The notes beneath the pieces are model-generated. The model was not told where the DNA came from. It did no database searches and saw only the letters and a list, made by a program, of their open reading frames with translations. This document shows, in pieces, positions 8,019-29,489 of a stretch of DNA of 64,000 nt. A program made the translations under genes and the position numbers. The DNA is from a phage: the sequence record PZ445447.1. One strand, 5' to 3'. Each line of letters starts with the position of its first letter. Position 1 is the stretch's first letter.

Positions 8019-8021
8019 TGC

Positions 8022-8050
8022 TTGACAACAGTCATAGGGCCTACTATAAT
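8022..8050 (+). promoter_or_regulatory. sigma70-type promoter
   Basis: TTGACA, 17 nt spacer, TATAAT; spacer and -10 lie within an inverted repeat ATAGGGCC...GGCCCTAT. Confidence 0.7.
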
Positions 8051-8081
8051 GGCCCTATCAAAACGGAAGGGGACCACAGCA

Positions 8082-13579: not shown

Positions 13580-13774
13580 ATGAGAAACAAGAAAGAACTT
13601 TACTCTGGTGAGTGGATCAACGATCAACAGGTGGGAGAGGTAACCTGCTTCCGATGTTTTACCAGGTACAATCTTAAAACTGCACCAAAAAGTGTTCCAA
13701 AGACTGATGGTTATTATATAAAAGAACCTCATTGCCCAAAATGTAAATGCCGATTGTACTGGAGCAATCTGTAA
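13580..13774 (+). CDS. hypothetical zinc-ribbon protein
   Basis: GGGAGAG RBS; CFRC...CPKCKC cysteine pairs; 64 aa. Confidence 0.55.
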   Translation: MRNKKELYSGEWINDQQVGEVTCFRCFTRYNLKTAPKSVPKTDGYYIKEPHCPKCKCRLYWSNL

Positions 13775-13778
13775 GAGG

Positions 13779-13806
13779 TTGACATCTGAAAACTGCAGTG
13801 TATAAT
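13779..13806 (+). promoter_or_regulatory. sigma70-type promoter
   Basis: TTGACA, 16 nt spacer, TATAAT. Confidence 0.65.
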
Positions 13807-13837
13807 ATACGCATAAACTAACAGAGAGCGATGTATT

Positions 13838-14029
13838 ATGGTAATTTTTAACCGGGATGGTATCATAGTTAGACAGCACCCGTTCCTTGAATACTATCAA
13901 ATTGAGCAATGGTGCTACGGGGATTGCAGTCACTCCTATGGGCAAAGTTGGGGATATCGTACAGTTTTTGAATCAACAGACCTTGACAAAGTAAGACAGA
14001 AAGTTTTAGAACTTATTAACAACAAGTGA
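13838..14029 (+). CDS. hypothetical protein
   Basis: Downstream of promoter 13779; 63 aa. Confidence 0.5.
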   Translation: MVIFNRDGIIVRQHPFLEYYQIEQWCYGDCSHSYGQSWGYRTVFESTDLDKVRQKVLELINNK

Positions 14030-14038
14030 GTATGATAT

Positions 14039-14371
14039 ATGGTAACATTAGAAAGACGTAAAGCTATCGCTGCCACACTGGCAGACATCTTTTGGGATTG
14101 TAATTTAAAATCTACCCGAAATTGTGGCGCATCTGTAGATGTATTATTCCCACGGCCTACTATTGTTGCAATGGGCAACCTTCTTGATGTGGTATATGGA
14201 GCATGGGACAAGGAAGGTGGATTCTATATCTGGCAACCTGACTACGGGACTTGGAAAGAGGTTAGTGGTTCTACGGACTTCACTCCTGCAGTGGCTAAAA
14301 TGGATGGCTGGAAAATCTATGTCGGTAACGACATGGAACTGAAAGGCGAAATTGTTTACTGGTTACCTTAA
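14039..14371 (+). CDS. hypothetical protein
   Basis: ORF track; weak RBS. Confidence 0.5.
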   Translation: MVTLERRKAIAATLADIFWDCNLKSTRNCGASVDVLFPRPTIVAMGNLLDVVYGAWDKEGGFYIWQPDYGTWKEVSGSTDFTPAVAKMDGWKIYVGNDMELKGEIVYWLP

Positions 14372-14391
14372 GAAAGTGCAGGGGATAAAGT

Positions 14392-14637
14392 ATGAACAAA
14401 GGGTGGACATTTGTAGACGGCGTTGAAAACATGCCTCTAGGAAAGTATATTGTAGCCATGGCAGATGAGAATGGCAAGGTTGATTTCGGAGCTTGCGAGA
14501 TTGTTCTTGCAGGATCTGGTGACCATGTGCACAAAACTGGGATAATTAACGGTCATTTCTACTTTGATTACAACCCTGTTGTGGCGTATATGGCTATGCC
14601 AGAGTTAGAGCTCCCAAAGGAGGGTGCAGATGTTTAA
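14392..14637 (+). CDS. hypothetical protein
   Basis: AGGGGA RBS; 81 aa. Confidence 0.55.
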   Translation: MNKGWTFVDGVENMPLGKYIVAMADENGKVDFGACEIVLAGSGDHVHKTGIINGHFYFDYNPVVAYMAMPELELPKEGADV

Positions 14638-14827
14638 GCTTAAATCTGCATGGAACATCGCTGTGGGGGATGAGATCCGCATCCCAGGTGGAAAGACCAT
14701 TATGAAGATATCACGTATCGAGTATGAAGGTGATCGTGTATTTCATATCTTTGCAGAAGATGGTCGAGAAATTTATATACAGGCAGGCTCTCACATCTAT
14801 ATTCGTAAGAAAGGGGACGACAAATGA
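14624..14827 (+). CDS. hypothetical protein
   Basis: AGGAGG RBS; 67 aa. Confidence 0.55.
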   Translation: MQMFKLKSAWNIAVGDEIRIPGGKTIMKISRIEYEGDRVFHIFAEDGREIYIQAGSHIYIRKKGDDK

Positions 14828-15156
14828 CAGAGATCATCGTTTCAACTGCAGGGTATGTATTCCTGACAATCATTGCGTTGGCTATTCTGGTGGCGGTGTA
14901 TGGATTTGTTATCCTGCCTATTCTTGAGACATTTAGCTTGTGTCGGTGTTGGAGAAAAGCTTACGGACCACAACCGTGGAAAGACTGGTTTCATTTGGTG
15001 CGTATAGCGTTCTCTTATGCCTATGATCACTCCAGCAGTGCATGCGTAACCGGGTACCATGCCTACAACTGGAACTGGGAAGGGCTTGGGAGATGGACTG
15101 TTACAAAAACTATACCCTTACGGTTGTATAAAGGAAAGAACACACTGGGAGCCTGA
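14824..15156 (+). CDS. hypothetical membrane protein
   Basis: ATGA overlap; N-terminal hydrophobic helix. Confidence 0.55.
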   Translation: MTEIIVSTAGYVFLTIIALAILVAVYGFVILPILETFSLCRCWRKAYGPQPWKDWFHLVRIAFSYAYDHSSSACVTGYHAYNWNWEGLGRWTVTKTIPLRLYKGKNTLGA

Positions 15157-15179
15157 TATTTTAAGTTATCAGATTGCCA

Positions 15180-15660
15180 GAGATCAGGAGGATTTCTAAA
15201 ATGGATTTCCTCCTTTTGATATTTTACCTACCAGGATATTTTAAAATCCTTAGAAAATCAGAAAATGGATCGAAAACTAAAATGGATTTTTCAGAGCAGG
15301 CACGACGAGATGAACCACTCATCCTATCGTCTGCACCATATTCCAGACCACCATTACAGATTTCCCGCACATGCTCACATCCTTCTACTAGAACTTCCCC
15401 CACTTACCCTTGACCTTTTATAGTAATAATCCAACCACTACCTTGAAGTTGTGGCGCAGCTTTCCAAGTACTCGATCTGTTTTTCGTTTCAAAGATTGAA
15501 TTTTCTGAAAATTTTTCTCGATAAATTTCTCAGTACTCGATCTGTTTTTCGTTTTCTGAATCGGATTTTCTGGAAATCGTTCCGGCTCTCGACCTGAAAT
15601 TTTTGGGGACGAAATCGATTTTTCGTTTTCAGAAATGGATTTTTAAAATTTCTATATGGG
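15180..15660. repeat. non-coding direct-repeat tract (iteron-like)
   Basis: GTACTCGATCTGTTTTTCGTTT at 15468 and 15534 plus degenerate copies; four or five AATGGATTTT-type repeats. Confidence 0.6.
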
Positions 15661-15757
15661 AATATTTTAGTGGATACTATTTTATAGGAAATTGTTACGG
15701 AGGGTAATTAGCGTGCTAATTAAATTTATTAAATGCGAGGAGTTCTCATTTAGAATT

Positions 15758-15776
15758 TTGAATGATAATCATTCTC
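15758..15776 (+). promoter_or_regulatory. Fur-box-like operator (copy A)
   Basis: TTGAATGATAATCATTCTC matches Fur consensus GATAATGATAATCATTATC at 15 of 19 (ATGATAATCATT core exact). Confidence 0.5.
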
Positions 15777-15790
15777 GTTTGCAGAATAAC

Positions 15791-15832
15791 GGGCAGGCCC
15801 GGTGATTGTCTCCCGGCCCCTACTGCCCCGGC
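15791..15832. repeat. GC-rich imperfect palindrome element (copy 1 of 3)
   Basis: GGGCAGGCCCGGTGATTGTCTCCCGGCCCC...; related copies at 15926-15970 and inverted at 25152-25199. Confidence 0.55.
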
Positions 15833-15893
15833 TTGTTATTATAGTAACACACAGGACAAAGAAAGCAAGAAGTTTTTGCATAAATTTTTAGAC

Positions 15894-15912
15894 GATAATG
15901 ATAATCGTTCTC
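15894..15912 (+). promoter_or_regulatory. Fur-box-like operator (copy B)
   Basis: GATAATGATAATCGTTCTC matches Fur consensus at 17 of 19. Confidence 0.55.
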
Positions 15913-15925
15913 ATTTCATGCAGCG

Positions 15926-15970
15926 CCCATCCCCGGTGGTTGTCTCCCCCGTCACCGGTGCCTGCCGTCC
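15926..15970. repeat. GC-rich imperfect palindrome element (copy 2 of 3)
   Basis: CCCCGGTGGTTGTCTCCCCCGTCACCGGTGCCTGCCG. Confidence 0.5.
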
Positions 15971-16176
15971 TTTCGATAGGTATATTTTGCCACCTGGCGG
16001 GGCCGCTGTCAACACTTTTCAAAAAAAAAAAAATTTCTAACCTGATGCGCTGACCGCTGCAACCTGGCGGGGCCAGCCTGGCAGGGCCTAACTGACCAGG
16101 TAGGAGAGAATGAAGGCTTGCAAACCTGGTGGGCCTATGCTATAGGATAGGTAACAATTGAAGAGGAGGTACAAAA

Positions 16177-16353
16177 ATGGAAGGTAATATGATCCCCCTG
16201 GAAAATGTAGCTATTAATGACGCTGAGGCTATCGCCCTGGTTGAAAAGGCTATGGCGGGAGCGTTGGAACATAAAGAAGAGTACGAAAAAATGGTGGTTA
16301 ACCTGGCAGGGGCGGCGGCTGGAGAATTCTACCCAAAAAATAATTTTAACTAA
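16177..16353 (+). CDS. hypothetical small protein (58 aa)
   Basis: Not in ORF track (under 60 aa); ATG 7 nt after GAGGAGG RBS; clean 58-codon frame. Confidence 0.5.
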   Translation: MEGNMIPLENVAINDAEAIALVEKAMAGALEHKEEYEKMVVNLAGAAAGEFYPKNNFN

Positions 16354-16438
16354 TGGTTGACAGCTCGGACAGTTCTTGTTATTCTTATCCTCGCAAGGTG
16401 AACAACACCACACCAATTAACAGAGAGGATAAAAAATC

Positions 16439-16636
16439 ATGAACGCCTACGGAATTAAAGTACGTCGCAACACTCGCCAGGTGGTCACCAATCAAGTGAT
16501 TTGCCGGGTGGATGTAACCATCAACAACGGGCAAGGCCTTTATAAATTTCGTCGCGGTCATAGCTATACCCTGCAACAGCTTAACCGTTGCGCCCTGACA
16601 AAAGGTCAGATCAACCACTGGTTTAATAAAAAATAA
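16439..16636 (+). CDS. hypothetical protein
   Basis: AGAGGATAAAAAATCATG RBS context; 65 aa. Confidence 0.55.
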   Translation: MNAYGIKVRRNTRQVVTNQVICRVDVTINNGQGLYKFRRGHSYTLQQLNRCALTKGQINHWFNKK

Positions 16637-16638
16637 TG

Positions 16639-16667
16639 TTGACATATGGTCTGACACAAAATACACT
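16639..16667 (+). promoter_or_regulatory. sigma70-type promoter
   Basis: TTGACA, 17 nt spacer, TACACT. Confidence 0.55.
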
Positions 16668-16699
16668 GAAATCACAAAAGACACTAAGAGGATAAAATC

Positions 16700-17098
16700 A
16701 TGAAAACCACTACCTTTAATTTTGATAATGCGGACTTTTCTTTTTCTGATGTCAAGAACTGCCGCCGTGATCGTGGATTTTACAAGGCTTATAATCTGGT
16801 GGGCCTGGACGATGACAATAATTTGCACGAAGTAGCTGAGATCCGGTATTATGCCGCCGCCAGTGGTAACACTCACTACTGCGTGTTTTGGATTCACGAC
16901 AACAAGAACAATAAGTACGGTTATACTGGCGGCAAGGCGAGCGGTCACGGTTACGATAAAGCTAACGCAGCACTTGAGAGCGCATTAAATGCTATGGGGA
17001 TCACTGCCGACGGCTGGATCTACGAAGAAGAGTTTTTGTCGGCACTTGCTGACCACCTGGGCTATAAAAAGCACATTGTGACATGCGCCCACGAATAA
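16700..17098 (+). CDS. hypothetical protein
   Basis: AAGAGGATAAAATCATG; 132 aa. Confidence 0.6.
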   Translation: MKTTTFNFDNADFSFSDVKNCRRDRGFYKAYNLVGLDDDNNLHEVAEIRYYAAASGNTHYCVFWIHDNKNNKYGYTGGKASGHGYDKANAALESALNAMGITADGWIYEEEFLSALADHLGYKKHIVTCAHE

Positions 17099-17142
17099 AA
17101 ATCATTGACACGCTGCAAAATTTAAGTAAACTAGACACAAAA

Positions 17143-17161
17143 GGCGGGAATGTTTCCCGCC
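17143..17161 (+). promoter_or_regulatory. 5' UTR hairpin (GGCGGGAA..TTCCCGCC family)
   Basis: Perfect 8 bp stem between promoter (TTGACA at about 17104) and RBS; related hairpins at 19689-19707 and 23788-23804. Confidence 0.5.
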
Positions 17162-17181
17162 AGCACAAAGGAAAAAAGATC

Positions 17182-17577
17182 ATGAATAAGAACGTACGCC
17201 GCATCATGAACGAACTGGCAAACGATGAAAAAATTATTGACATGCATTTAGTCAACATTTGCCGCCGTTGTGTAACATATAACAACCGCGCCGCAAAAGC
17301 GCGTGAGATGAACGCAAAAGGCACCTTAAAGCCCTTTCAGGTGGTTGTAAAATCTATAACCAGTGCAGCAGGCCAGGCGCATGACCACAACAACGGGAGC
17401 ACTAATATTGATCCGTCTTACGTAATGAAACGGATCCGGACTTGCAAGAATAAAGAGCAGGTGTATAATGTCATAGACTGGTTGGATTCTATGGGCGATG
17501 TGGTTTACAATAGGTTTTCTGCAGCTATCGAGATCCAGCTTGACAGGTTGGACGGTAAAGTACTGAAAACTTACTAA
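17182..17577 (+). CDS. hypothetical protein
   Basis: Start moved to ATG downstream of promoter, hairpin and AAAGGA RBS; in frame with ORF 17083-17577. Confidence 0.55.
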   Translation: MNKNVRRIMNELANDEKIIDMHLVNICRRCVTYNNRAAKAREMNAKGTLKPFQVVVKSITSAAGQAHDHNNGSTNIDPSYVMKRIRTCKNKEQVYNVIDWLDSMGDVVYNRFSAAIEIQLDRLDGKVLKTY

Positions 17578-17578
17578 G

Positions 17579-17626
17579 ATTATTTTTAGATGGCCTTGAC
17601 TTCAGGGCCATCAATAAAGTAAACTA
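17579..17626 (+). repeat. repeated intergenic cassette (promoter-plus-stem-loop-like), copy 1
   Basis: GATTATTTTTAGATGGCCTTGACTTCAGGGCCATCAATAAAGTAAACT; near-identical copies at 18209-18256 and 21949-21994. Confidence 0.7.
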
Positions 17627-17657
17627 ATCCCAGTTAAGCGAAAAAGGAGGCTTGAAG

Positions 17658-17777
17658 ATGAGCACTGCACGCCAACACACAAAGGTAACGATTATCGTTT
17701 GCATCATTGGTTACATCCTGGCGCAAATGTTGATGGGTAGCGCCAATGATTTCGCAAAATTTTTCTTAGACTTTTAA
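17658..17777 (+). CDS. hypothetical small membrane peptide (39 aa)
   Basis: AAAGGAGG RBS 7 nt upstream; hydrophobic core VTIIVCIIGYILAQMLMG; not in ORF track. Confidence 0.45.
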   Translation: MSTARQHTKVTIIVCIIGYILAQMLMGSANDFAKFFLDF

Positions 17778-17805
17778 TTGACAAGCTAACTTAAATCAGT
17801 ATAAT
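17778..17805 (+). promoter_or_regulatory. sigma70-type promoter
   Basis: TTGACA, 16 nt spacer, TATAAT. Confidence 0.7.
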
Positions 17806-17857
17806 ACTAAGCACATAAACGGGAAAACTTCCCAGAACACCAAAAGGAGAAAACATT

Positions 17858-18208
17858 ATGAATACTTCCATCACTATGACCGCCGAAGAAAAAGCCCTGC
17901 AGATCGCCGCTCTGAAAAAACAGATTGCAGAACTTGAAGACAAGATCGACAATTTTGAAATCGACGAAGACAAGTACGACGATAAATATGATGAATGGTT
18001 AGACGAGATCTACGGCGAAATTATGATCGGAAACATCTCTTTTCTTCCGTCGCGTATCCTCAAGGAGCTAGATCCTATCGCTTACCGCTGCGGATTTAGC
18101 GACTACATCGACAGCCTGGATATTGAGGACGATGAAGAATACCAGGAATTACAGACAGAGTTAGAAGAAGCAAAAGAAGAGCTTGCAGAACTGGAAGAAA
18201 ACGAGTAA
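17858..18208 (+). CDS. hypothetical highly acidic protein
   Basis: AAAGGAGAAAACATTATG leader; many D/E residues; 116 aa. Confidence 0.6.
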   Translation: MNTSITMTAEEKALQIAALKKQIAELEDKIDNFEIDEDKYDDKYDEWLDEIYGEIMIGNISFLPSRILKELDPIAYRCGFSDYIDSLDIEDDEEYQELQTELEEAKEELAELEENE

Positions 18209-18256
18209 GATTATTTTTAGATGGCCTTGACTCCAGGGCCATCAATAAAGTAAACT
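18209..18256 (+). repeat. repeated intergenic cassette, copy 2
   Basis: GATTATTTTTAGATGGCCTTGACTCCAGGGCCATCAATAAAGTAAACT directly after a stop codon. Confidence 0.7.
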
Positions 18257-18297
18257 TTATACTGTTAACACTGAACTAATGCATAGGAGTTAAAACC

Positions 18298-18543
18298 ATG
18301 GCAGCACTAATCACCAAATATTATGCCCCTACCAACACCAAAAGCGCCCGTATCATGGTAAAAGGATTCGGACGTAAAAAGGTGTACACCTGGGATTATG
18401 CCTTAGACACGGAAGACAACTACACCAACGCGATGACCGATTTTATTAATGATCTGAACACGCGGATCTTGACAAATTATAAAATTACCGATATTGCCTA
18501 TATAGGGGAAGGCGGGATCTGTTTTGTCGGTATCGTCAAATAA
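18298..18543 (+). CDS. hypothetical protein
   Basis: ATAGGAGTTAAAACCATG leader (same as gene at 22912); 81 aa. Confidence 0.6.
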   Translation: MAALITKYYAPTNTKSARIMVKGFGRKKVYTWDYALDTEDNYTNAMTDFINDLNTRILTNYKITDIAYIGEGGICFVGIVK

Positions 18544-18554
18544 GCTGTTTTTTC

Positions 18555-18590
18555 GGTGGTCCTGGTAGCAGGGCCATCTATAAAGATAGT
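18555..18590 (+). repeat. degenerate copy of the intergenic cassette
   Basis: GGTGGTCCTGGTAGCAGGGCCATCTATAAAGATAGT shares the GGGCCATC-ATAAAG core. Confidence 0.4.
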
Positions 18591-18618
18591 TTATCAATAC
18601 AATGAAAGGAGAAAGTAC

Positions 18619-18972
18619 ATGATCAGCGGGGCAAGTTTTATTATTGGCGCTATTGCTACGGCTTTAATTGTAAACAAGATCCAATCTAAAAACGAAAAAG
18701 ATAGCAACGCCCTTACAGAATACCCGTTTTGGGTATTCAACGACAATGAAGACTATATTATCAAGTACAAGAATGAGAAGGGCGACCAGGTAACACCGCG
18801 ACCGATCCCGGCTTACAAGATGCAAGAAACACTATACCGCCTAAAGGCTGGAGGCGCAAAAATCGTAGACTTTTGGGGATACGATCACACAGATCAGGAA
18901 GTTATAAAGCGCCGTATCCGGGCTATTCAGGCCAATATTGAAGTTAGCAAGGGGGGAATATATGAAGATTAA
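18619..18972 (+). CDS. hypothetical membrane-anchored protein
   Basis: AAAGGAGAAAGTACATG; N-terminal TM helix; in frame with ORF 18556-18972. Confidence 0.55.
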   Translation: MISGASFIIGAIATALIVNKIQSKNEKDSNALTEYPFWVFNDNEDYIIKYKNEKGDQVTPRPIPAYKMQETLYRLKAGGAKIVDFWGYDHTDQEVIKRRIRAIQANIEVSKGGIYED

Positions 18973-19159
18973 TTTTGAGAAGATTGTAAAGCGATCTCAT
19001 GCTTCCGAAGAGCTGCCGGAACGCCGCCAGCGCAACAATAAACTGAATAAGCCAAAAAGATTTGGGAAGATCTGGCGGAATCATTATGATCGCAAATTAC
19101 CGGGCCTGCTTTTGGAACGTGAACGACAGGCGGAACGATACCGCCACAAAGGCAAATAA
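18962..19159 (+). CDS. hypothetical small basic protein
   Basis: AAGGGGGG RBS; R/K-rich; 65 aa. Confidence 0.5.
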   Translation: MKINFEKIVKRSHASEELPERRQRNNKLNKPKRFGKIWRNHYDRKLPGLLLERERQAERYRHKGK

Positions 19160-19167
19160 CAACCAAC

Positions 19168-19194
19168 GCCCCGCCATTGTGCGGGGCTTTTTAT
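19168..19194 (+). terminator. rho-independent terminator
   Basis: CGCCCCGCC-ATTGT-GCGGGGC then TTTTT. Confidence 0.7.
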
Positions 19195-19340
19195 TTCTAT
19201 CCTACAAATAGCGCCCCTGGTTGGCCCTGTAAGCGCCAAAAAGGCCCCACCTATGCAATCGCCCCCCTTTAACCTGAAAACATCGCTTAGGGCCGTTTTA
19301 TGGCGTTAAAAATATCATTGACAGTGATTTTATTTAAAGC

Positions 19341-19368
19341 TTGACATCTTAAACAGGTTAGCTATACT
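19341..19368 (+). promoter_or_regulatory. sigma70-type promoter
   Basis: TTGACA, 16 nt spacer, TATACT; a second TTGACA lies 25 nt upstream. Confidence 0.6.
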
Positions 19369-19400
19369 AACCACATCAAAGAGAGAAAGGAGTAAACGCC

Positions 19401-19661
19401 ATGCGTAAATTAAAAAATTTTGATAAAGTTGATGTTGTCCTGAATAATTTTTACTACTGCAACAACAAGGCCATTTGGTGGCGTGATAGTTCCACCGATA
19501 AAGTCAAGGCGCGCTTTCTCCAGGGGCACTGGCAAGGCCGCCCAGTGATTAAAATCATGGGGCAATTGGTAGCGTTTAAAAATTGCCGCCGTGTTGATGA
19601 CGTTGAAGAGATCTTGAATATTTTACGCCACAATAATTTAAAAAATAGTGTTGACAAGTAA
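19401..19661 (+). CDS. hypothetical protein
   Basis: GAGAAAGGAG RBS; 86 aa. Confidence 0.6.
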   Translation: MRKLKNFDKVDVVLNNFYYCNNKAIWWRDSSTDKVKARFLQGHWQGRPVIKIMGQLVAFKNCRRVDDVEEILNILRHNNLKNSVDK

Positions 19662-19679
19662 ATCTCAATAAGTATACTT
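19651..19679 (+). promoter_or_regulatory. sigma70-type promoter
   Basis: TTGACA, 17 nt spacer, TATACT; followed by hairpin GGCGGGAAGTTTTCCCGCC. Confidence 0.65.
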
Positions 19680-19735
19680 AAGCACACAGGCGGGAAGTTT
19701 TCCCGCCACTAACAAAGAAAATAGGAGAAAATATC

Positions 19736-20359
19736 ATGACCACCGTTAACATTACCACAGGTTGCAATTTATCTTTCGACGTGCTGACCGACGAACAAAA
19801 AGAAAAAGCTATTGAAATGGTCCGCGAAAGAGAAGAACACAGCGGAGAGGATTTTTTCGCAGAAAGTGTAATTGAATATTATAAAGAACAAGTTTTTCCA
19901 GAGTACGGCCTTGAAGATACCGATGTACATTGGTCCGGCTTTTGGTGTCAAGGCGATGGCGCGTCAATTAGTGCTGAAAATGTAGACTTAGAGAAATTCT
20001 TGCGTAAAGTCAAGGCCCTGACCAAGTTCCGATCAATTCGTCACTTGTTCGGCACAATGCACGATGGCGAACTATCAGCCAGTGTTGAACGCGACAAGTA
20101 CAGCCATTACAGCCATGAAAACACTGTAAGCGGATATATTGATACTACCTGGCTAGATCTGACCGCAAAACAAGAAAATAAAGTAGAAGATCTGGAAGAG
20201 CTGATCACCGAGACGGTACGGGAGCTATCCCGCAAGGTTTATGTAGACCTGGAGGAGGCCTATCTTGAACAGTTTACTACCGAAAACCTGATCGGCCTTA
20301 TTGAAGCCAATGATTGGCGGTTTGATGTGGATGAATATGGAGAAATGAGTTTTTCATAA
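19736..20359 (+). CDS. hypothetical protein
   Basis: AATAGGAGAAAATATCATG leader; 207 aa; no confident family. Confidence 0.6.
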   Translation: MTTVNITTGCNLSFDVLTDEQKEKAIEMVREREEHSGEDFFAESVIEYYKEQVFPEYGLEDTDVHWSGFWCQGDGASISAENVDLEKFLRKVKALTKFRSIRHLFGTMHDGELSASVERDKYSHYSHENTVSGYIDTTWLDLTAKQENKVEDLEELITETVRELSRKVYVDLEEAYLEQFTTENLIGLIEANDWRFDVDEYGEMSFS

Positions 20360-20450
20360 ATAAAGTGTTGCAATAATCTAAAAACCTGCTATATTAAAAC
20401 TTAAGGGGGCGAGATGACTTGCCCCCACACAAAACAAAGAGGAAAACATC

Positions 20451-20831
20451 ATGAAAAACACTACTAAAGCTATTGACACCGTTATGTTTAACCTGGTTAC
20501 ATTCCGTGAAGATATGAAAGATCTTCCACGTGAAACAGTGTGCGACCATATCGAAAACTATCGCAAACTAATCAAAGAGTTGCCTTTAAAACGTGACCAG
20601 TACGCGGCTAACGCTATGCTTAACGCCATGATCAAGAAAATGATTCAGTGCGATTTGACTTTAGCTTATGATTATGCAGGTGGTCGTTTTGCAGTATACA
20701 ATCAGCCCGTGCCTGGTATGAGCACCACAGAAGAATTGCACGCGTTAAATCTAAAACAAGACGTATGGGATAACATGCCCCGCGTGGTGGTGTGGGCAGA
20801 AAGCGGAAAGATTTACGGCGATAATTTTTAA
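20451..20831 (+). CDS. hypothetical protein
   Basis: Promoter, hairpin GGGGGCGAGATGACTTGCCCCC and AAAGAGGAAAACATCATG leader. Confidence 0.6.
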   Translation: MKNTTKAIDTVMFNLVTFREDMKDLPRETVCDHIENYRKLIKELPLKRDQYAANAMLNAMIKKMIQCDLTLAYDYAGGRFAVYNQPVPGMSTTEELHALNLKQDVWDNMPRVVVWAESGKIYGDNF

Positions 20832-20840
20832 TCAGGTAAC

Positions 20841-20866
20841 AGGCGGCATATTTGCCGCCTTATTGT
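20841..20866 (+). terminator. rho-independent terminator
   Basis: AGGCGGCATATTTGCCGCCT then T-rich. Confidence 0.65.
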
Positions 20867-20895
20867 TAAACAGAACTGCAAAAGAGGTACATAGA

Positions 20896-21267
20896 ATGGA
20901 ATTTATTATTTTGGCTGTAGTAGTTGCCTTGTTCAACGCCTGGATCGCTGGCAAGATGGGTAGATCCGCTTTTCTATGGTTTGTTATATCTATTTTCCTG
21001 GGAGTGGTTGCAACTATTGTATTGGTTATCCTTGCAATTGTTGACAAGGGGAATAATAGAAAGGGTAAAGTATTTTCAGACCTGTACGACGCTCAAACGT
21101 TTGTCAACGCCTATTATAGTGATCTTCCAGTCTCCCTACGTTGCAGCCTTGCACAACAGGTTTTCGATGAAGCTAAAACCAGAGATCACGCCCATGAGAT
21201 TTGTTTAACTGAGGCGGATCGCCTATTTGAGAGGAATAGAAAATATGTGGACCAGCCGTTTAAATAA
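20896..21267 (+). CDS. hypothetical membrane protein (two predicted TM helices)
   Basis: AAAGAGG RBS; in frame with ORF 20863-21267. Confidence 0.55.
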   Translation: MEFIILAVVVALFNAWIAGKMGRSAFLWFVISIFLGVVATIVLVILAIVDKGNNRKGKVFSDLYDAQTFVNAYYSDLPVSLRCSLAQQVFDEAKTRDHAHEICLTEADRLFERNRKYVDQPFK

Positions 21268-21377
21268 TGCCACGTTAATTAACCCCTTTAGTGAAGATTT
21301 GAAGCCAGCCGCCTGGCGGGATGGATTCAATAACGAAAGCTTTATTTTCAGGCCTGATCTTAAGGAATTTTATAACA

Positions 21378-21503
21378 ATGGATCGAACAACGACAGAGAT
21401 AATTTTTCTTGTAATGTGCGTGGTGATAATACTCCTGGGGGCCATTGCAAACCACGTCACTGCTAACAGGAGGAAAGGGGGAGACGATGACACCCAAGGA
21501 TAA
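21378..21503 (+). CDS. hypothetical small membrane peptide (41 aa)
   Basis: AAGGA upstream; TM helix IIFLVMCVVIILLGAI with charged tail; the overlapping ORF 21245-21466 is N-rich low complexity. Confidence 0.4.
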   Translation: MDRTTTEIIFLVMCVVIILLGAIANHVTANRRKGGDDDTQG

Positions 21504-21606
21504 GCCCCGCACCGATAAGGCGCGCCGTGTTATGGTATGGCTTGAGATCATCGCCCTTGAAATATTGTTAGGCGTAGGGATGTATTTTATCGCTGTAAGT
21601 AACTGA
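21487..21606 (+). CDS. hypothetical small membrane peptide (39 aa)
   Basis: AGGAGGAAAGGGGGAG RBS; basic N-terminus then TM helix; not in ORF track. Confidence 0.4.
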   Translation: MTPKDKPRTDKARRVMVWLEIIALEILLGVGMYFIAVSN

Positions 21607-21745
21607 TAACGGCCCCGATCCCTGGGGCCTAACTTTTCAAATTTTTTCTCCCTGAGTGTTGCAATCCGATCCAGAATATGGATAATAACAATCAACGGGG
21701 AGACACTCCCCACCGCATAGACAAAGTTCCAAAAGGAGAAACAAA

Positions 21746-21946
21746 ATGAGCAACAATATCCGCGTTATTAACTTCAAAAAAGAAGAAAAAATTGCCGTGC
21801 TGATTGACGGTCAAGAAATCTTTAAAGGTGATTATGAAGATCATCAAACGGCGATTAGTATCACTCGCGTGATTGGTTACCATAATTTTTACCCTCAAGG
21901 CGCTGAGGCAGCAGTAAAACGAATTAAAGAGATTGTAGGCCTGTAA
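21746..21946 (+). CDS. hypothetical protein
   Basis: TTGCAA...TGGATAATAA promoter-like sequence, hairpin GGGGAGACACTCCCC, AAAGGAGAAACAAAATG. Confidence 0.6.
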   Translation: MSNNIRVINFKKEEKIAVLIDGQEIFKGDYEDHQTAISITRVIGYHNFYPQGAEAAVKRIKEIVGL

Positions 21947-21948
21947 AA

Positions 21949-21994
21949 TTTATTTTTAGATGGCCTTGACTCCAGGGCCATCAATAAAGTAAAT
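21949..21994 (+). repeat. repeated intergenic cassette, copy 3
   Basis: TTTATTTTTAGATGGCCTTGACTCCAGGGCCATCAATAAAGTAAAT. Confidence 0.7.
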
Positions 21995-22031
21995 TTAAAC
22001 CCTGTTAAAATAATCAGTGCAAAAAGGAGTA

Positions 22032-22337
22032 ATGATCATGTTTATCCAGGCTAATAATCTTTATTTCTTTGATGGTCAGATCGTAGACGGCGTGGAGGTG
22101 GAAATCACCGGGTGCCCTGGCGGTCAGGTTATGACTTTTCGGAATAATGCCTTTGATGATTCTCATATCGTTATGAGAATGGAAGTTAGTAAGCTGGATG
22201 ACAAGAAAACACTTATCGACTATTCCGTCAAAGATCATCCAGACTACCACATGATCTATGGTGATTTGTGCATTGTTGACCGTGACAAGGTGGGCGGCAT
22301 TGTGATCGCTATTGTGAACGATGTTTTCTCAAACTAA
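22032..22337 (+). CDS. hypothetical protein
   Basis: AAAGGAG RBS; in frame with ORF 22017-22337. Confidence 0.55.
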   Translation: MIMFIQANNLYFFDGQIVDGVEVEITGCPGGQVMTFRNNAFDDSHIVMRMEVSKLDDKKTLIDYSVKDHPDYHMIYGDLCIVDRDKVGGIVIAIVNDVFSN

Positions 22338-22354
22338 TTTCAGCAGGTGATTTT

Positions 22355-22705
22355 ATGAAAGTAAAACTATATTACCTTAATGAGCTTAACCCCCTTGCCC
22401 AGGTCCGCGCCCTGGCTAATACCTTGATTTGTGAGAAATCTGTATATTGTGTTGAGCTTAACGCCATGCGTGAACGTCTCAAAGGTGGTTACTTTGACAT
22501 CCATGCTGCAATCAACGGCCTGAATATGGAATTTATCCGCTTACGTAACAGCCGCCAGAATCTGGCAAGAATGGAACAAGATCCGGCCCACCTTCGTAAG
22601 CTGGTTATTGAAAATCATCTGATGTTTAATGCCGATGGTGATTATTACCATTTTCACCGTAAACGCTGGTACCGTAGCGGCAATATAGGAAAGAATGCAA
22701 AATAA
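22355..22705 (+). CDS. hypothetical protein
   Basis: 116 aa; followed by two hairpins. Confidence 0.55.
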   Translation: MKVKLYYLNELNPLAQVRALANTLICEKSVYCVELNAMRERLKGGYFDIHAAINGLNMEFIRLRNSRQNLARMEQDPAHLRKLVIENHLMFNADGDYYHFHRKRWYRSGNIGKNAK

Positions 22706-22742
22706 GGCCCCTGGCAGGGCCTGCAGCGATATAATCACATAA

Positions 22743-22774
22743 AGGCTATGCGGTTGCATAGCCTTTATTATTTT
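22743..22774 (+). terminator. rho-independent terminator
   Basis: AGGCTATGCGGTTGCATAGCCT then TTATTATTTT. Confidence 0.7.
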
Positions 22775-22911
22775 GGCGTTACAGCGGCCCCCAAGGCGCT
22801 TAAAAAATTTTTAAAGAAGTACTTGCATCAAGTCCTACAATATGGATAATAAAGGGTGTCGGGGGGCGGGGAGGCCTCCAATCATTAACCGGATAGATAG
22901 GAGTTAAAACC

Positions 22912-23196
22912 ATGGCTATTGTTACCGTTGGCGATGTAATAGAAATGGAAGCCAAATACTTAAAAGCTGGTATGCATATCATACGGAATGATCAAGAATT
23001 GTTATTAACCATGGTTGAATATAATCCCGGTCAGGATTATCCAAGCATTGACTACTTTTTCCAGTATGTTGATGAAGAATTAAAAGAGGATGAGGCTTAT
23101 CAGGGTGAATTTTGTAATTTCTTTTGCTCTGATGAGGTTGTAAAAGTTATCTATCAACCTGGCGTACCTTTCCCGCTGCACGCTATCAATAAATAA
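22912..23196 (+). CDS. hypothetical protein
   Basis: ATAGGAGTTAAAACCATG leader; 94 aa. Confidence 0.6.
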   Translation: MAIVTVGDVIEMEAKYLKAGMHIIRNDQELLLTMVEYNPGQDYPSIDYFFQYVDEELKEDEAYQGEFCNFFCSDEVVKVIYQPGVPFPLHAINK

Positions 23197-23252
23197 ACCT
23201 GGCGGGGCCGAAAAGGCCCCCCAATTATGAAAATAAAGAGAGGCAAATCATC

Positions 23253-23486
23253 ATGATGGAACAAATTAAACGCGCCGAGGCTATTAATGGCAACGTGATC
23301 TATTTTGTCAGCAAAAACGAAAAAGGCGTACCCTATGCGGCTGTAATAGTACAGCCTGACGGCGATTATTGGTGCACTGTGTACGGCGCTTATTCTTTTG
23401 GGCGTCCAGTGCATGATAAAATTTTGAAAGTAGCGAACCCTACCGGGAAAAATATTACAGCAGAAAAATTTTTTGAAAATAGTTGA
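23253..23486 (+). CDS. hypothetical protein
   Basis: AAGAGAGG RBS; 77 aa. Confidence 0.55.
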   Translation: MMEQIKRAEAINGNVIYFVSKNEKGVPYAAVIVQPDGDYWCTVYGAYSFGRPVHDKILKVANPTGKNITAEKFFENS

Positions 23487-23510
23487 CATGACCTTATAAG
23501 ACTGTAGAAT
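23483..23510 (+). promoter_or_regulatory. sigma70-type promoter
   Basis: TTGACA, 16 nt spacer, TAGAAT; followed by hairpin GGGGGCAACAAGCCCC. Confidence 0.6.
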
Positions 23511-23561
23511 ATAAATCAAAGGGGGCAACAAGCCCCACCAACCACAAAGAGGATAAAAATC

Positions 23562-23741
23562 ATGGCTATTATTGCAAAGACTGAGATCGTAGGCTTAGAT
23601 TCTATTCTCCTCGCATATGAGGAAGCTATAGAAATGTATGTGGTTTCCTATGGTGAATATATCCGTGAATATAAATCTATTGATCTAGCTTTTGAATGTT
23701 ATATTCGCCAGGTCAATAAAGCATATGATGATTATCGTTAA
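23562..23741 (+). CDS. hypothetical small protein (59 aa)
   Basis: Complete promoter-hairpin-AAAGAGGATAAAAATCATG module; clean 59-codon frame; not in ORF track. Confidence 0.5.
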   Translation: MAIIAKTEIVGLDSILLAYEEAIEMYVVSYGEYIREYKSIDLAFECYIRQVNKAYDDYR

Positions 23742-23747
23742 AATAGT

Positions 23748-23776
23748 TTGACAACAGTCAACAATCTGGTAAAGTG
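23748..23776 (+). promoter_or_regulatory. sigma70-type promoter
   Basis: TTGACAACAGTCA (same -35 context as the promoter at 8022); followed by hairpin GCGGGAATACTTCCCGC. Confidence 0.5.
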
Positions 23777-23823
23777 TACTACATAGCGCGGGAATACTTC
23801 CCGCCATTAATGAGGGTAATTTA

Positions 23824-23961
23824 ATGAAAACTTTCAACGCAACAGCCTCGACAATTGGTTATATTATTACAGTACAGGCCGTGGATCTGGTAGCAGCAGC
23901 AAACAAGATTAAAAAGATGATTCCGCCAGGTAGTGAATTTTCCGTTTGGGAAGTAAAATAA
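23824..23961 (+). CDS. hypothetical small protein (45 aa)
   Basis: ATG after AATGAGGGTAA leader; frame verified codon by codon to TAA at 23959. Confidence 0.4.
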   Translation: MKTFNATASTIGYIITVQAVDLVAAANKIKKMIPPGSEFSVWEVK

Positions 23962-24044
23962 ATCTTGACAATAGTTTATTACTTGATAGACTGTATTTCG
24001 TAGGGCGGGGCAATAAGGCAACGCCCATTAATGAGGGTAGAATC

Positions 24045-24149
24045 ATGTTAGAGAAAATTTTCACGGTTGTAGTAGTTGGCCTGGCATTATCGGTTGGAGT
24101 GGTTGCAACTATGGCTAACATGATCCTATCTTCCCACGGTATCGGTTAA
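24045..24149 (+). CDS. hypothetical small hydrophobic peptide (34 aa)
   Basis: Promoter (TTGACA 23965), hairpin, AATGAGGGTAGAATCATG leader; sequence LEKIFTVVVVGLALSVGVVATMANMIL. Confidence 0.45.
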   Translation: MLEKIFTVVVVGLALSVGVVATMANMILSSHGIG

Positions 24150-24159
24150 GGTGAATCAA

Positions 24160-24375
24160 ATGATCACGAATAAGACAGGTAAAACAGAATTTTTACGCGG
24201 CTTGCAAATAGGTAAGCCTGAGATCTGGCATTGCACTAAAACACCACGTGACGAAATGAAAGACTTCACCGCCACGCTGCAACGGGTAAAGATATCCATC
24301 ACGCAGAAAAAGGCCTTGATAGTGGTGGAAGGTGAGATCCCTCAAACCGTTGTTATAGTTGAGCGTACAGCATAG
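24160..24375 (+). CDS. hypothetical protein
   Basis: AAGGTG RBS; 71 aa. Confidence 0.5.
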   Translation: MITNKTGKTEFLRGLQIGKPEIWHCTKTPRDEMKDFTATLQRVKISITQKKALIVVEGEIPQTVVIVERTA

Positions 24376-24466
24376 TTTAATTTATAGCGATACCTGAAAA
24401 TTAACCAATAAATCATAAACAGGCGGTTACCGCCGCCTTAAACGTAGCAGAAAGAGGCTAGACACA

Positions 24467-24751
24467 ATGAAAAAGATGATCGCAGTAGTTGCCCTGGTTG
24501 TTGGACTTAATGCGCCTGTAATGGCTAAAGAGCTGGCAAAAGAGGTTAATCTAACGGATATCCATGCCGTCAATCAAATCGGGGTTACTTATCGCTTATG
24601 CCTTGCCGCTAAAACTTTTAATGACGGCACAACAGAGTACTACGGATTCGAGGGTATCCGGTGCGGTGAGCTTGCTCGCGACCTTAAGGAAGATCCAGAC
24701 CTGGAAGATCTGCCCATCACCGTAAACGGTAAAGCTTACGTAAACCGTTAA
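24467..24751 (+). CDS. hypothetical secreted protein
   Basis: AAAGAGG RBS; N-terminal signal-peptide-like MKKMIAVVALVVGLNAPVMA. Confidence 0.6.
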   Translation: MKKMIAVVALVVGLNAPVMAKELAKEVNLTDIHAVNQIGVTYRLCLAAKTFNDGTTEYYGFEGIRCGELARDLKEDPDLEDLPITVNGKAYVNR

Positions 24752-24900
24752 CCGTGAAAAAGATAATCATTACCTTGGGGATTGTGGCGGGATCGCTGGC
24801 GCTCTTTCCCCTTATGGTTAGATATGTGCTGATCAGTATTGTCCTGGTGGTCAGTGATCTACTAGAAACGGTTGGCACCTTGTTTTAAAGAGCGATAAAA

Positions 24901-25092
24901 ATGAATGTTGAACAAGTTAGAAAGGTATTGGCGGTACTGCGTTATCATAATCATAGAAAGGTCATAGACGATCCTGATTATGTTGATTCAAGTCTGGAAG
25001 AGGATACACTACAAGCCATAAGTAACATGCAAGAATTGCTAAAGCGCATGACAGAGAAAAACCGACCGGACTACATAGGCGAAAAAATATAA
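24901..25092 (+). CDS. hypothetical protein
   Basis: ORF track; weak RBS; terminator-like hairpin downstream. Confidence 0.45.
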   Translation: MNVEQVRKVLAVLRYHNHRKVIDDPDYVDSSLEEDTLQAISNMQELLKRMTEKNRPDYIGEKI

Positions 25093-25151
25093 TCCTTATT
25101 AACTAGAAAACAGGGCTTGCAATGGTCCTGTTTTTTGTTATACTTATTACA

Positions 25152-25199
25152 CGGCAGGCACCTGGCGACGGGGGGAGACAATCACCGGGCCTGCCTGTC
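25152..25199. repeat. GC-rich imperfect palindrome element (copy 3, inverted)
   Basis: ACGGCAGGCACCTGGCGACGGGGGGAGACAATCACCGGGCCTGCCTGT; reverse complement matches the elements at 15791 and 15926. Confidence 0.55.
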
Positions 25200-25220
25200 A
25201 TATAAGAACTATAAAAACCG

Positions 25221-25249
25221 TTGACATCTGCCAGGTGGTGGGGTAACAT
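25221..25249 (+). promoter_or_regulatory. sigma70-type promoter
   Basis: TTGACA, 17 nt spacer, TAACAT; followed by hairpin GGGCAAAAGTGCCC. Confidence 0.55.
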
Positions 25250-25303
25250 TTATCTTGAAGGGGCAAAAGTGCCCACACAACAACCAGAAGAGAGGAAAAC
25301 ATT

Positions 25304-25576
25304 ATGTCAAGCTGGATTAATCAAGAAGTCGAATCACGTTTTAATGCTATTTGGGATCTCATCGAAAAAGAGGACGGAACATCAAGCCCTTATCTCAATA
25401 ATCTTGAATTCCATTTCGTGGAAGCGATGAACGCAGAACATGATCACGAAGGTGGTGCGGATGAGTTCGCTAAAGGGTATGGCTTCAACAATGCCAACGA
25501 AATGATCGAGGCGGTTGTACTCCAGGCTGAGGAAGATTATCAATTAAAAACGCTTGAATTCTGCCGCCGTAAGTAA
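25304..25576 (+). CDS. hypothetical protein
   Basis: AGAAGAGAGGAAAACATTATG leader; 90 aa. Confidence 0.6.
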   Translation: MSSWINQEVESRFNAIWDLIEKEDGTSSPYLNNLEFHFVEAMNAEHDHEGGADEFAKGYGFNNANEMIEAVVLQAEEDYQLKTLEFCRRK

Positions 25577-25636
25577 TAAGATAATGACACGGGCCAAAAG
25601 GCCCACTAATCAGAACCACACAAAGAGAGAAAGAAA

Positions 25637-25855
25637 ATGACAACCCGTAAAATTAAAGTTGTTTGCATTGAATCGACTGGGGGCGCTTTTGTAGTTGGTC
25701 AGGAATATAATGCGGTTTTAATGGGTACGGATTGGAAGGTTAAAGGCCTTAATGGTTACGAGTACGGCACTACTTGCGGCTTGCGTGGTCGAATCGGATA
25801 CGTGAGTTTAGACAACAAAGAAAAATTTGTTTTCGACACCGTTGTGAGTAAATAG
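25637..25855 (+). CDS. hypothetical protein
   Basis: AAAGAGAGAAAGAAAATG leader; 72 aa. Confidence 0.55.
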   Translation: MTTRKIKVVCIESTGGAFVVGQEYNAVLMGTDWKVKGLNGYEYGTTCGLRGRIGYVSLDNKEKFVFDTVVSK

Positions 25856-25933
25856 CATGAATTGCTAAAGACTGATCTGCGAACTGCTGTATTATCAACT
25901 AATCAAAACGAACCGCATAAAGAGGAAAACATC

Positions 25934-26197
25934 ATGAAACGTCTGGATCAGCTTAAATTAGTTCAGTACATGGCCTACAGAATTCTTGAAGTCCAAAAAG
26001 GTAGCAAAAAAGAGGTTTGCGAGAAAGCTTATAAGATCTTTACTCGCAAAAAAGATGACTGGATGCTACGCCAGACCAAAAAATCCGATATCCTGGGGTA
26101 CCTGGAAGAAGAGATCCGGCTTGAAGAACAAGAAGAGATCCGCCGCAGTGAGGCAGATTATCAGGCAGCTTGGGAAAACTGGATGAGCAACAAATAA
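25934..26197 (+). CDS. hypothetical protein
   Basis: AAAGAGGAAAACATCATG leader; in frame with ORF 25862-26197. Confidence 0.55.
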   Translation: MKRLDQLKLVQYMAYRILEVQKGSKKEVCEKAYKIFTRKKDDWMLRQTKKSDILGYLEEEIRLEEQEEIRRSEADYQAAWENWMSNK

Positions 26198-26263
26198 TAC
26201 AACAAGTTACGGTCAGGGGGGTAATAAAGCCCCTTGATCACATAAAAATTATGCTATCCCTGG

Positions 26264-26292
26264 TTGACAGGGATCGGCAGTTTTGCTATATT
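26264..26292 (+). promoter_or_regulatory. sigma70-type promoter
   Basis: TTGACA, 17 nt spacer, TATATT. Confidence 0.65.
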
Positions 26293-26341
26293 CTTTTTTG
26301 AAGGGGAGTTGTAAGAAAATTAACTAAGAGGTAAAAACACC

Positions 26342-26761: not shown

Positions 26762-26780
26762 TTTTTTAACTGAATTATCA

Positions 26781-26805
26781 AGGGGCTTAGGCCCCTTTCT
26801 TTTTG
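26781..26805 (+). terminator. rho-independent terminator
   Basis: AGGGGC-TTAG-GCCCCT then TTCTTTTTG. Confidence 0.7.
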
Positions 26806-26806
26806 T

Positions 26807-29273: not shown

Positions 29274-29489
29274 TCAGTCCAGCGGTTCATCCTCTACTTC
29301 ACTGAAATCAATGTTCATGGTCTCTTCCCAACCATCGATCTCAGCACAAGAGTGGAGTTCTTTAGGGTTTACTCCCAAAGCCTCAGCAACAGAGTCTATA
29401 TTTAACACCTCTGGCAGGTATGATTCATCGAATTCAAGGTAAATCAGGCCACGAGTGTTGTCAGCTCCACCAAATATCTCTATCTTCAT
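29274..29489 (-). CDS. hypothetical small acidic protein
   Basis: GAGGAG RBS; starts MKIEIFGG like several array members; 71 aa. Confidence 0.55.
   Translation of the reverse strand: MKIEIFGGADNTRGLIYLEFDESYLPEVLNIDSVAEALGVNPKELHSCAEIDGWEETMNIDFSEVEDEPLD

Follow-up and report, generated by a model that had tools for sequence, protein, structure and literature searches.

Results

We examined a stretch of phage DNA of 64,000 nucleotides (record PZ445447.1; hereafter the window, numbered from its first letter) that carries several copies of a short intergenic element, here called the cassette, in which a hairpin placed directly behind a stop codon is interleaved with promoter-like hexamers. The whole window shows 100% identity with Escherichia phage MaxBurger (Bas54, MZ501093.1; Vequintavirus, Vequintavirinae, rV5-like), and subtracting 66024 from a position in that record gives the window position. 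A cluster of + strand genes occupies 1-26761 and holds, from about 11.6 kb on, some 45 small open reading frames (ORFs) of unknown function. Near-consensus sigma70 promoters (TTGACA, 16-17 nt, TATAAT-like) are present in 14 intergenic spacers of this small-ORF region, which is therefore the early region, transcribed by the host polymerase. Most of the 14 strong promoters are accompanied by a G-C hairpin in the 5′ untranslated region (5′ UTR), about 10 nt downstream. The genes that flank the cassettes lie on the + strand throughout.

Three of the cassettes are near-identical (canonical copies 1 to 3, Table 1). A 48-mer is found exactly at 18209-18256, with one mismatch, located in the loop, at 17578-17625, and with three mismatches, located at the edges, at 21948-21995; no match to it occurred in 100 dinucleotide-preserving shuffles. 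A repeat search returned a 51-nt family that includes the upstream stop codon (17575-17625, 18206-18256, and 21944-21995), and a fourth, diverged copy with 69% identity to this family lies at 18541-18591. The canonical copies share at least 43 identical bases and are in direct orientation. All four sites have the same layout, with TAA followed by GATTATTTTTA and, further downstream, AGGAG and ATG; the stop codon is 11-12 nt 5′ of the inner stem, and the distance from the cassette end to the next start codon is 32, 41, and 42 nt for copies 1, 2, and 3 and 27 nt for the diverged copy. When a covariance model made from 29 distinct instances was run on the window, exactly these four sites were significant, at 68-81 bits on the + strand and 30-43 bits on the - strand. 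The original prediction, made from the letters of the DNA, had described three near-identical cassettes after stop codons, a degenerate relative near 18555, and a small gene 30-45 nt beyond each cassette. These elements are real and the spacing holds for the canonical copies; the predicted starts of copies 1 and 3 were off by one.

Table 1. Cassette copies, the deletable module, and neighboring genes, in window positions.
Feature	Position	Strand	Inner stem (5′ arm / 3′ arm)	Loop	-35-like hexamer	-10-like hexamer	Remarks
Copy 1	17575-17628	+	17589-17598 / 17603-17612	ACTT, 17599-17602	TTGACT, 17596-17601	TAAACT, 17620-17625	bas54_0106 stop codon 17575-17577; covariance model 75.9 bits
Copy 2	18205-18259	+	18220-18229 / 18234-18243	ACTC	TTGACT, 18227-18232	TAAACT, 18251-18256	bas54_0108 stop codon 18206-18208; covariance model 76.9 bits
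Diverged copy	18540-18594	+	GGTGGTCCTG / CAGGGCCATC, 18555-18564 / 18569-18578	GTAG			bas54_0109 stop codon 18541-18543; 13-bp outer helix; covariance model 68.1 bits
Copy 3	21944-21998	+	21959-21968 / 21973-21982	ACTC	TTGACT, 21966-21971	TAAATT, 21990-21995	bas54_0118 stop codon 21944-21946; covariance model 80.7 bits
631-bp module	17626-18256	+					Lost in ime, magaca, ECP26, and one IMG/VR contig; contains bas54_0107, bas54_0108, and one cassette copy
bas54_0107	17658-17777	+					39 aa; in the module
Consensus promoter	17778-17805						In the module; with 5′-UTR hairpin
bas54_0108	17858-18208	+					116 aa; in the module
bas54_0109	18298-18543	+					81 aa; between copy 2 and the diverged copy
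bas54_0110 + bas54_0111	18619-19159	+					3′ of the diverged copy; end at intrinsic terminator 19168-19187 plus T run
bas54_0119	22038-22337	+					99 aa; first gene 3′ of copy 3

The + strand of each cassette folds into a long, interrupted hairpin. Its inner helix (GATGGCCTTG / CAGGGCCATC in DNA; GAUGGCCUUG/CAGGGCCAUC on the + strand) has 10 bp, including one G-U (U-G) pair, and is closed in the canonical copies by the tetraloop ACTT or ACTC. A 2x3 internal loop separates it from an A-U outer helix (7-13 bp), the 5′ arm of which has its start at the stop codon, and the interrupted helix measures about 23 bp in all. The GATGGCC...GGCCATC stem-loop around TTGACT that had been proposed is thus present, with a stem longer than supposed. 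The + strand folds of the four copies have energies of -20.7 to -28.2 kcal/mol (z -4.3 to -6.0), and folding is strongly strand-dependent: the diverged copy gives -28.2 kcal/mol on the + strand (z -6.05) vs. -10.7 on the - strand (z -1.2), and the covariance model scores about 38 bits higher on the + strand than on the - strand.

For comparative analysis, we assembled 44 cassette instances. Of the 14 genomes or contigs that supplied them, eight are GenBank phages, five are metagenome contigs, and one is an IMG/VR contig. The instances comprise 29 distinct 55-mers, 23 of them canonical, to which the following figures refer. Bases were paired in 92.4% of the cells, vs. 35-55% when the partners were slid, and in the inner helix in 100% of cells. 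Both sides have changed at six outer pairs (e.g., A-U/U-A, U-A/G-U, G-C/A-U, C-G/U-A), and the observed covariation score was reached by none of 500 shuffles. Within the diverged copy alone, a C-G pair has switched to U-A between phage lineages, with one C-A intermediate. One U-G pair, which would be a C-A mismatch on the other strand, is invariant across all instances, and further G-U pairs in the diverged copy would likewise be C-A mismatches there. The covariation, the G-U pairs, and the strand asymmetry together indicate that the selected object is the structure of the sense-strand transcript and not a DNA palindrome. The alignment thus establishes that an interrupted hairpin of about 23 bp is maintained by selection on the sense strand.

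Nucleotide diversity is 0.004-0.053 in the cassette minus the loop vs. 0.045-0.113 in the upstream coding flank. Variation falls mainly at loop positions 3-4 (ACTC, ACTT, ACAC, ACAT, ACGC), and the same loop variants recur at paralogous positions in different genomes, which suggests that the copies undergo gene conversion or else that only a few loop states are permitted. Two aberrant forms of copy 1 were also observed. In Gotham (5501-5566 of the Gotham piece), a 5-bp deletion (GGGCC) destroys the 3′ arm of the stem, and copy 1 of contig Ga0129313 has a loop of 5 nt (ATAAC) and one additional base in its 3′ flank. Damage to copy 1 is therefore tolerated in some lineages.

The promoter-like hexamers of the three canonical copies (TTGACW-18-TAAAYT) are interleaved with the hairpin. 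TTGACT is formed by the last three bases of the stem and the first three of the loop, and TAAACT (TAAATT in copy 3), which begins after an 18-nt spacer, is part of the outer helix on its 3′ side. The AC with which the loop completes TTGAC is the same in all canonical 55-mers, in contrast to the variable loop positions 3-4. TAAACT also serves as the -10 of the evident promoter P0106, and CAATAAAGTAAACT is similar to CAATAAGTATACT of promoter P0113. The lac promoter has an 18-nt spacer as well, and such a spacer is workable. In the Gotham record, copies 2 and 3 are annotated as promoters by PhagePromoter. Overall, the chances that the cassettes have promoter activity appear about even or a little better.

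Comparison with relatives revealed that the DNA between copies 1 and 2 can be lost as a unit. In ime and ECP26, the homolog of bas54_0106 is followed directly by that of bas54_0109, and the junction in ime, ECP26, and the IMG/VR contig is a single hybrid cassette, flanked upstream as copy 1 is and downstream as copy 2 is. The missing DNA amounts to 631 bp, which is the start-to-start distance of copies 1 and 2. A query made from the ime junction matched magaca over its full length and in a single piece, as it did ime itself; the search tool joined the two pieces matched in module-bearing genomes, so that only such single-piece full matches (ime and magaca) are readable. The breakpoints of synteny expected at the cassettes by the original prediction were therefore found, with one hybrid cassette in place of copy 1, the 631 bp, and copy 2.

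The deletion does not appear to trace to one simple event. Divergence between ime and the module-bearing EdH4 is 0.2% on both flanks, and that between ECP26 and a contig with copy 1 and bas54_0107 is 0.2% upstream. The three carriers ime, ECP26, and the IMG/VR contig are 6-10% apart and have three different flank haplotypes. The module has therefore been lost at least twice, and probably three times, or else the deletion allele was itself passed on by recombination. Collapse of the repeat during assembly is an unlikely cause of the module-less genomes, given that the repeat is only about 50 bp long and that four separate assemblies share the junction with differing flank haplotypes. By genome comparison, then, the module between copies 1 and 2 has evidently been removed repeatedly in natural relatives, with the cassette copies as substrates of homologous recombination. 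It is present in 113-115 of the approximately 118 records that hold bas54_0109.

Other deletions in the region have different junctions. The evolved rV5 strain rV5_ev146, which has a single cassette, was considered as a further product of cassette-mediated deletion and rejected, as its junctions are an 8-nt microhomology, CACAAAGG, and unrelated sites. It lacks about 0.5 kb (17168-17669) and about 6 kb (about 19110-25190), comprising some 16 early genes; the region is therefore dispensable in the laboratory, and not every deletion uses cassettes. In addition, bas54_0120 (22331-22694) is present in some relatives and absent in others, with about 19 nt in its place in Gotham, V5, and one metagenome contig, and the IMG/VR contig lacks approximately 22417-22708. 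The junctions in the bas54_0120 region are away from any cassette.

Cassettes were searched for well beyond this phage. Blastn with the cassette and with the diverged copy gave no significant match beyond Vequintavirus records, and no copy was present in E. coli genomes (n = 5,426), by which an origin from the host is rejected. A pattern scan of IMG/VR yielded one contig with the core pattern, which aligns to the Vequintavirus region, and a metagenome scan yielded seven loci on five contigs; with the exception of a 1.2-kb locus, all of these were aligned with the present region and matched it. A tRNA scan detected none, and an Rfam search (permissive on 15-24 kb, at the gathering threshold on the whole window) gave no relevant match.

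Discussion

Promoter-early stem-loops (PeSLs) are known from the T4-like phages RB49/phi1, T4/PST, and KVP40/nt-1, in which they have been proposed as linkers that allow small accessory genes to be shuffled (Arbiol et al., 2010, PMC2839356; Comeau et al., 2014, PMC4122927). A PeSL begins at the upstream stop codon, which is set in A/T-rich sequence, continues with a sigma70-like promoter, and extends to the Shine-Dalgarno sequence and ATG; it includes a stem-loop, which may contain G-T pairs and takes one of five positions, among them one that overlaps the -35 (PMC2839356). PeSLs are concentrated among non-essential ORFs and at indel junctions (PMC2839356), and degraded forms retain only some of the parts (PMC4122927). 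Their promoter is near-consensus in RB49/phi1 and looser in T4/PST and nt-1.

The MaxBurger cassettes have much the same anatomy. At all four sites they fill the intergenic space from an A/T-rich stop codon to a Shine-Dalgarno sequence and ATG, and they contain a stable stem-loop with G-T pairs, the 10-bp inner stem of which overlaps the -35 and the spacer while the outer helix includes the -10. The canonical copies have putative sigma70-like -35 and -10 hexamers, and the diverged copy, by analogy, corresponds to a degraded PeSL form. As in T4-like phages, direct copies are located among small, non-essential early ORFs, and relatives show indels with a chimeric cassette at the junction. Four differences should be mentioned. 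MaxBurger is a Vequintavirus and not a member of the Straboviridae, which concerns where PeSLs were described rather than their mechanism; it has only 3+1 copies at fixed positions rather than dozens; its promoter match (9/12, 18-nt spacer) falls short of the near-perfect RB49/phi1 consensus; and its stem-loop belongs to a longer interrupted helix, inside which both hexamers lie. The match to PeSLs that had been proposed from the sequence therefore stands for anatomy and deletion junctions, but the phage is not of the T4 type. Its corollary, the shuffling of flanking genes among relatives, stands as recurrent deletion at a cassette, with no gene replacements.

On balance, we think it probable that the cassettes are PeSL-type intercistronic regulatory elements within the host-polymerase-transcribed early cluster of an rV5-like coliphage. 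In read-through transcripts, the hairpin would form at the end of the upstream cistron, where it might act as a 3′-end protecting, processing, or attenuating signal. In the canonical copies, TTGACW-18-TAAAYT would serve as a moderate sigma70 promoter and transcription would restart about 7 nt past the hairpin, so that self-initiated transcripts would be free of it. Hairpin and promoter together could insulate the expression of neighboring gene modules, and gain or loss of a module would then be tolerable. Within this proposal, anatomy and recombination are supported, promoter activity is unproven, and classical termination is unlikely.

Several observations weigh against a PeSL-type element. 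Matches as good as 9/12 are common by chance, with 56 found vs. 34.7 expected in 14 kb, and the cassettes are unlike the 14 strong promoters, in which the spacer is 16-17 nt long, an A/T tract adjoins the -35, and a hairpin lies in the 5′ UTR. The hairpin is also retained where the hexamers are lost: in the diverged copy the best -35/-10 match is at most 8/12, and in copy 1 of Ga0129313 two 1-nt insertions have widened the distance between the original hexamers to 20 nt. The cassette element is not among the 33 promoters and 20 terminators listed in the rV5 genome paper, which speaks against the promoter in particular; no Vequintavirus transcriptome was found in the literature searched. Finally, the cassettes occupy the same 3+1 positions in every Vequintavirus examined, with at most three canonical places per record, and only deletions were seen at them, with no replacement or insertion of other genes.

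The retention of the hairpin without hexamers would be expected if the cassette were an RNA element only, i.e., a signal for RNase III-type intercistronic processing and 3′ stabilization like those of T7, with the hexamers incidental and the recombination a by-product. We regard this as a serious, if rather unlikely, explanation. After a cut in the internal loop, the 3′ end of the upstream mRNA would consist of the 10-bp inner hairpin. The geometry fits that of the folded intergenic hairpins of the T7 early region, which we take to be the RNase III sites R0.3, R0.5, R1, R1.1, and R1.3, in each of which a tetraloop tops an upper helix of about 10 bp and an internal loop separates this helix from a short A-U lower one. 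The names and positions of these sites reportedly go back to the work of Dunn and Studier in 1983. Like the cassettes, the T7 sites lie just after a stop codon, in several similar copies, in an early operon transcribed by the host polymerase, and the two-turn layout of the cassettes, in which the 2x3 internal loop separates the 10-bp inner helix from an outer helix of 7-13 bp, is that of the T7 sites as well. RNase III substrates comprise about two helical turns of double-stranded RNA, often with an internal loop that limits cleavage to one strand, and the single cut leaves a protective 3′ hairpin (PMC1540722). The R1.1 hairpin was confirmed by the GCAA tetraloop described for it (PMC1540722). 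At its loop, R1.1 has C-G, U-A, and U-G pairs, and the canonical cassettes have G-C, U-A, and U-G, the latter two being invariant in all canonical 55-mers; since the distal box consists of U-A and U-G pairs (PMC1540722), it would correspond to this part of the cassette. A covariance-model search of the TH18 and T7 early regions gave no significant match, and when E values up to 10 were admitted the only T7 matches, neither of them significant, were at R1 (E 2.4) and R0.3 (E 3.8).

Other features of the cassette argue against a purely RNA-level element. The proximal box requires G-C, A-U/U-A, A-U, and A-U/U-A toward the scissile bond, with no G-C adjoining it (PMC1540722), whereas the cassette has U-A, A-U, and G-C and then the internal loop instead of the preferred G-C, A-U, A-U. 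The G-C pair thus adjoins the internal loop, and such a pair is a catalytic antideterminant when adjacent to the scissile bond (PMC1540722). The diverged copy has C-G where the distal box needs U-G. In addition, near-identity over 43 nt, unpaired bases included, is more than a helix requires, TTGAC does not vary in the loop region, and bona fide promoters have similar -10 regions. The T7 sites also differ from the cassettes in having no sequence homology to them, no embedded -35/-10, and other proximal-box pairs. In the PeSL-type reading, which we prefer, RNase III processing is therefore a plausible but unproven role for the RNA part, and simple 3′-end protection or attenuation is the fallback.

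Conversely, the cassette might act solely as a DNA site, either a sigma70 promoter that shares its DNA with a 24-bp palindromic operator to which a dimeric protein of phage or host binds, or a site that forms a cruciform, with the RNA fold irrelevant. The near-palindrome GATGGCCTTG/CAGGGCCATC does overlap the -35, and conservation is very high even at bases that are not paired. Yet this is improbable in view of the compensatory changes in the outer helix (C-G to U-A, A-U to U-A, G-C to A-U), the invariant or position-specific G-U pairs that would be C-A mismatches on the other strand, and the strong strand asymmetry in folding and in the covariance model; the half-sites of the diverged copy differ at 2/10 positions, with RNA pairing intact. 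That the cassettes are ordinary intrinsic (Rho-independent) terminators between early transcription units is scarcely credible. A stable G-C-rich hairpin directly after a stop codon would be in keeping with one, but it is followed by AAUAAAG on the + strand or by UAAAAAUAA on the - strand, and because it has no U tract it does not qualify as an intrinsic terminator. A terminator scan that listed true terminators (e.g., 19168-19187 and 20841-20860) listed no cassette. We consider it just as remote that the cassettes are mobile repeats, similar to repetitive extragenic palindromes (REPs) or miniature inverted-repeat transposable elements, for whose spread a dedicated transposase or nuclease would be responsible. 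Several copies of a short intergenic repeat with an imperfect palindrome would suit such an origin; against mobility stand their constant positions among the Vequintavirus genomes examined, the absence of target-site duplications, and the distance of the homing endonuclease genes of the window from any cassette. The REPs and bacterial interspersed mosaic elements (BIMEs) of E. coli are short imperfect palindromes behind stop codons in operons; they are transcribed and can protect upstream mRNA and mediate rearrangements. The cassettes share with them the imperfect palindrome after a stop codon and differ in being absent from E. coli genomes, in their fixed low copy number, in having no associated transposase, and in their promoter-like hexamers.

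The PeSL-type reading is of wider interest in light of Escherichia phage TH18, which belongs to another genus of the Vequintavirinae. It has three intergenic cassettes after stop codons (10312, 13374, and 14546 of the TH18 piece), in which a putative sigma70 promoter likewise lies within an interrupted hairpin of about 24 bp (z -4.7 to -8.4) with compensatory differences between copies. In contrast to MaxBurger, the sequence is unrelated, the -10 rather than the -35 is at the apex, in the apical loop, and the promoter match is stronger (TTGACT-16-TAGAAT, TTGACG-16-TATAAT). The MaxBurger cassette appears to be the first of PeSL type outside T4-like phages, since the literature searched describes PeSLs only there; the cassette sequence itself was not found in that literature. 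The occurrence of elements of this kind in rV5-like phages, with exact and recurrent natural deletions, suggests that the mechanism is general for large virulent coliphages. Contact with T4-like phages is also indicated by bas54_0095 (13834-14042), which has 84% DNA and 89% protein identity to ORF260 of phi1 (2497-2706 of the phi1 piece). The DNA similarity ends at the gene borders, beside PeSL-type intergenic DNA in phi1, and the gene has evidently moved between phage families recently, as a gene-sized unit. Other RB49-like early ORFs are noted in the rV5 record. Such identity suggests that phage families share a pool of promoter-equipped gene modules.

The selection on the sense strand at the RNA level raises the question of whether the stem-loops are RNase III-type processing signals rather than terminators. 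Tentatively, one could envision the cassette as an insulator in which a promoter is placed inside a hairpin: host RNase III would cut the helix in read-through RNA, and transcripts from the embedded promoter would start beyond the helix and escape. The cut would cap the upstream mRNA with a protective hairpin and expose the downstream part to decay. We rate this specific scheme as unlikely, but if it were true, each early module would have its own autonomous expression, recombination could add or remove it with its neighbors undisturbed, and two genera of Vequintavirinae would use one design with unrelated sequences, with the -35 at the apex in MaxBurger and the -10 in TH18.

The promoters with 5′-UTR hairpins deserve mention in their own right. 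They are distributed over 13770-26340 (e.g., 17105-17161, 19651-19708, 20368-20426, 21659-21711, and 23748-23806), and a GGCGGGAA..TTCCCGCC hairpin recurs in them. They are also compatible with a PeSL subclass, and the EdH4 record labels them terminators. Among the neighboring genes, bas54_0109 encodes a protein with homologs (32-47% identity) in unrelated phages, namely CAjan-like siphoviruses, Pseudomonas myoviruses, and Klebsiella podoviruses, and bas54_0111 (18962-19159, 65 aa) has a match that exceeds the curated cut-off (E 2.3e-10) to Pfam Phage_1_1, the family of the T7 gene 1.1 protein.

Repeats of other kinds are present as well. The 294-nt gap between bas54_0099 and bas54_0100 contains three imperfect direct repeats of 65-74 nt (15458-15643), and a similar three-copy array, GTTCTCGATCG...ATCGTATTTG, is found in TH18, of the other genus, at 7953-8165 of the TH18 piece. 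Between the + strand early cluster and a - strand cluster lie 2.5 kb (26762-29274) in which no genes are annotated and no tRNAs or Rfam matches were found. This stretch is low in G+C (0.35-0.37) and rich in short repeats: a GTGTGTAAAC-type motif recurs about five times, 27407-27598 contains ATAGTTGCC(T/C)TG inverted repeats, and one 20-mer stands unchanged at both 27423 and 27654. It may serve as an origin or as a cis-acting region of another kind.

Elsewhere in the window, an anaerobic ribonucleotide reductase gene, bas54_0178/0179 (43266-45973), is annotated as two joined pieces around a homing endonuclease gene, in an intron-like arrangement, and two more putative homing endonuclease genes are annotated. 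Lastly, 17 records named as Campylobacter phages (MG0656xx) have 90-97% identity to this region of an E. coli phage and are, by that similarity, probably mislabeled Vequintavirus genomes.

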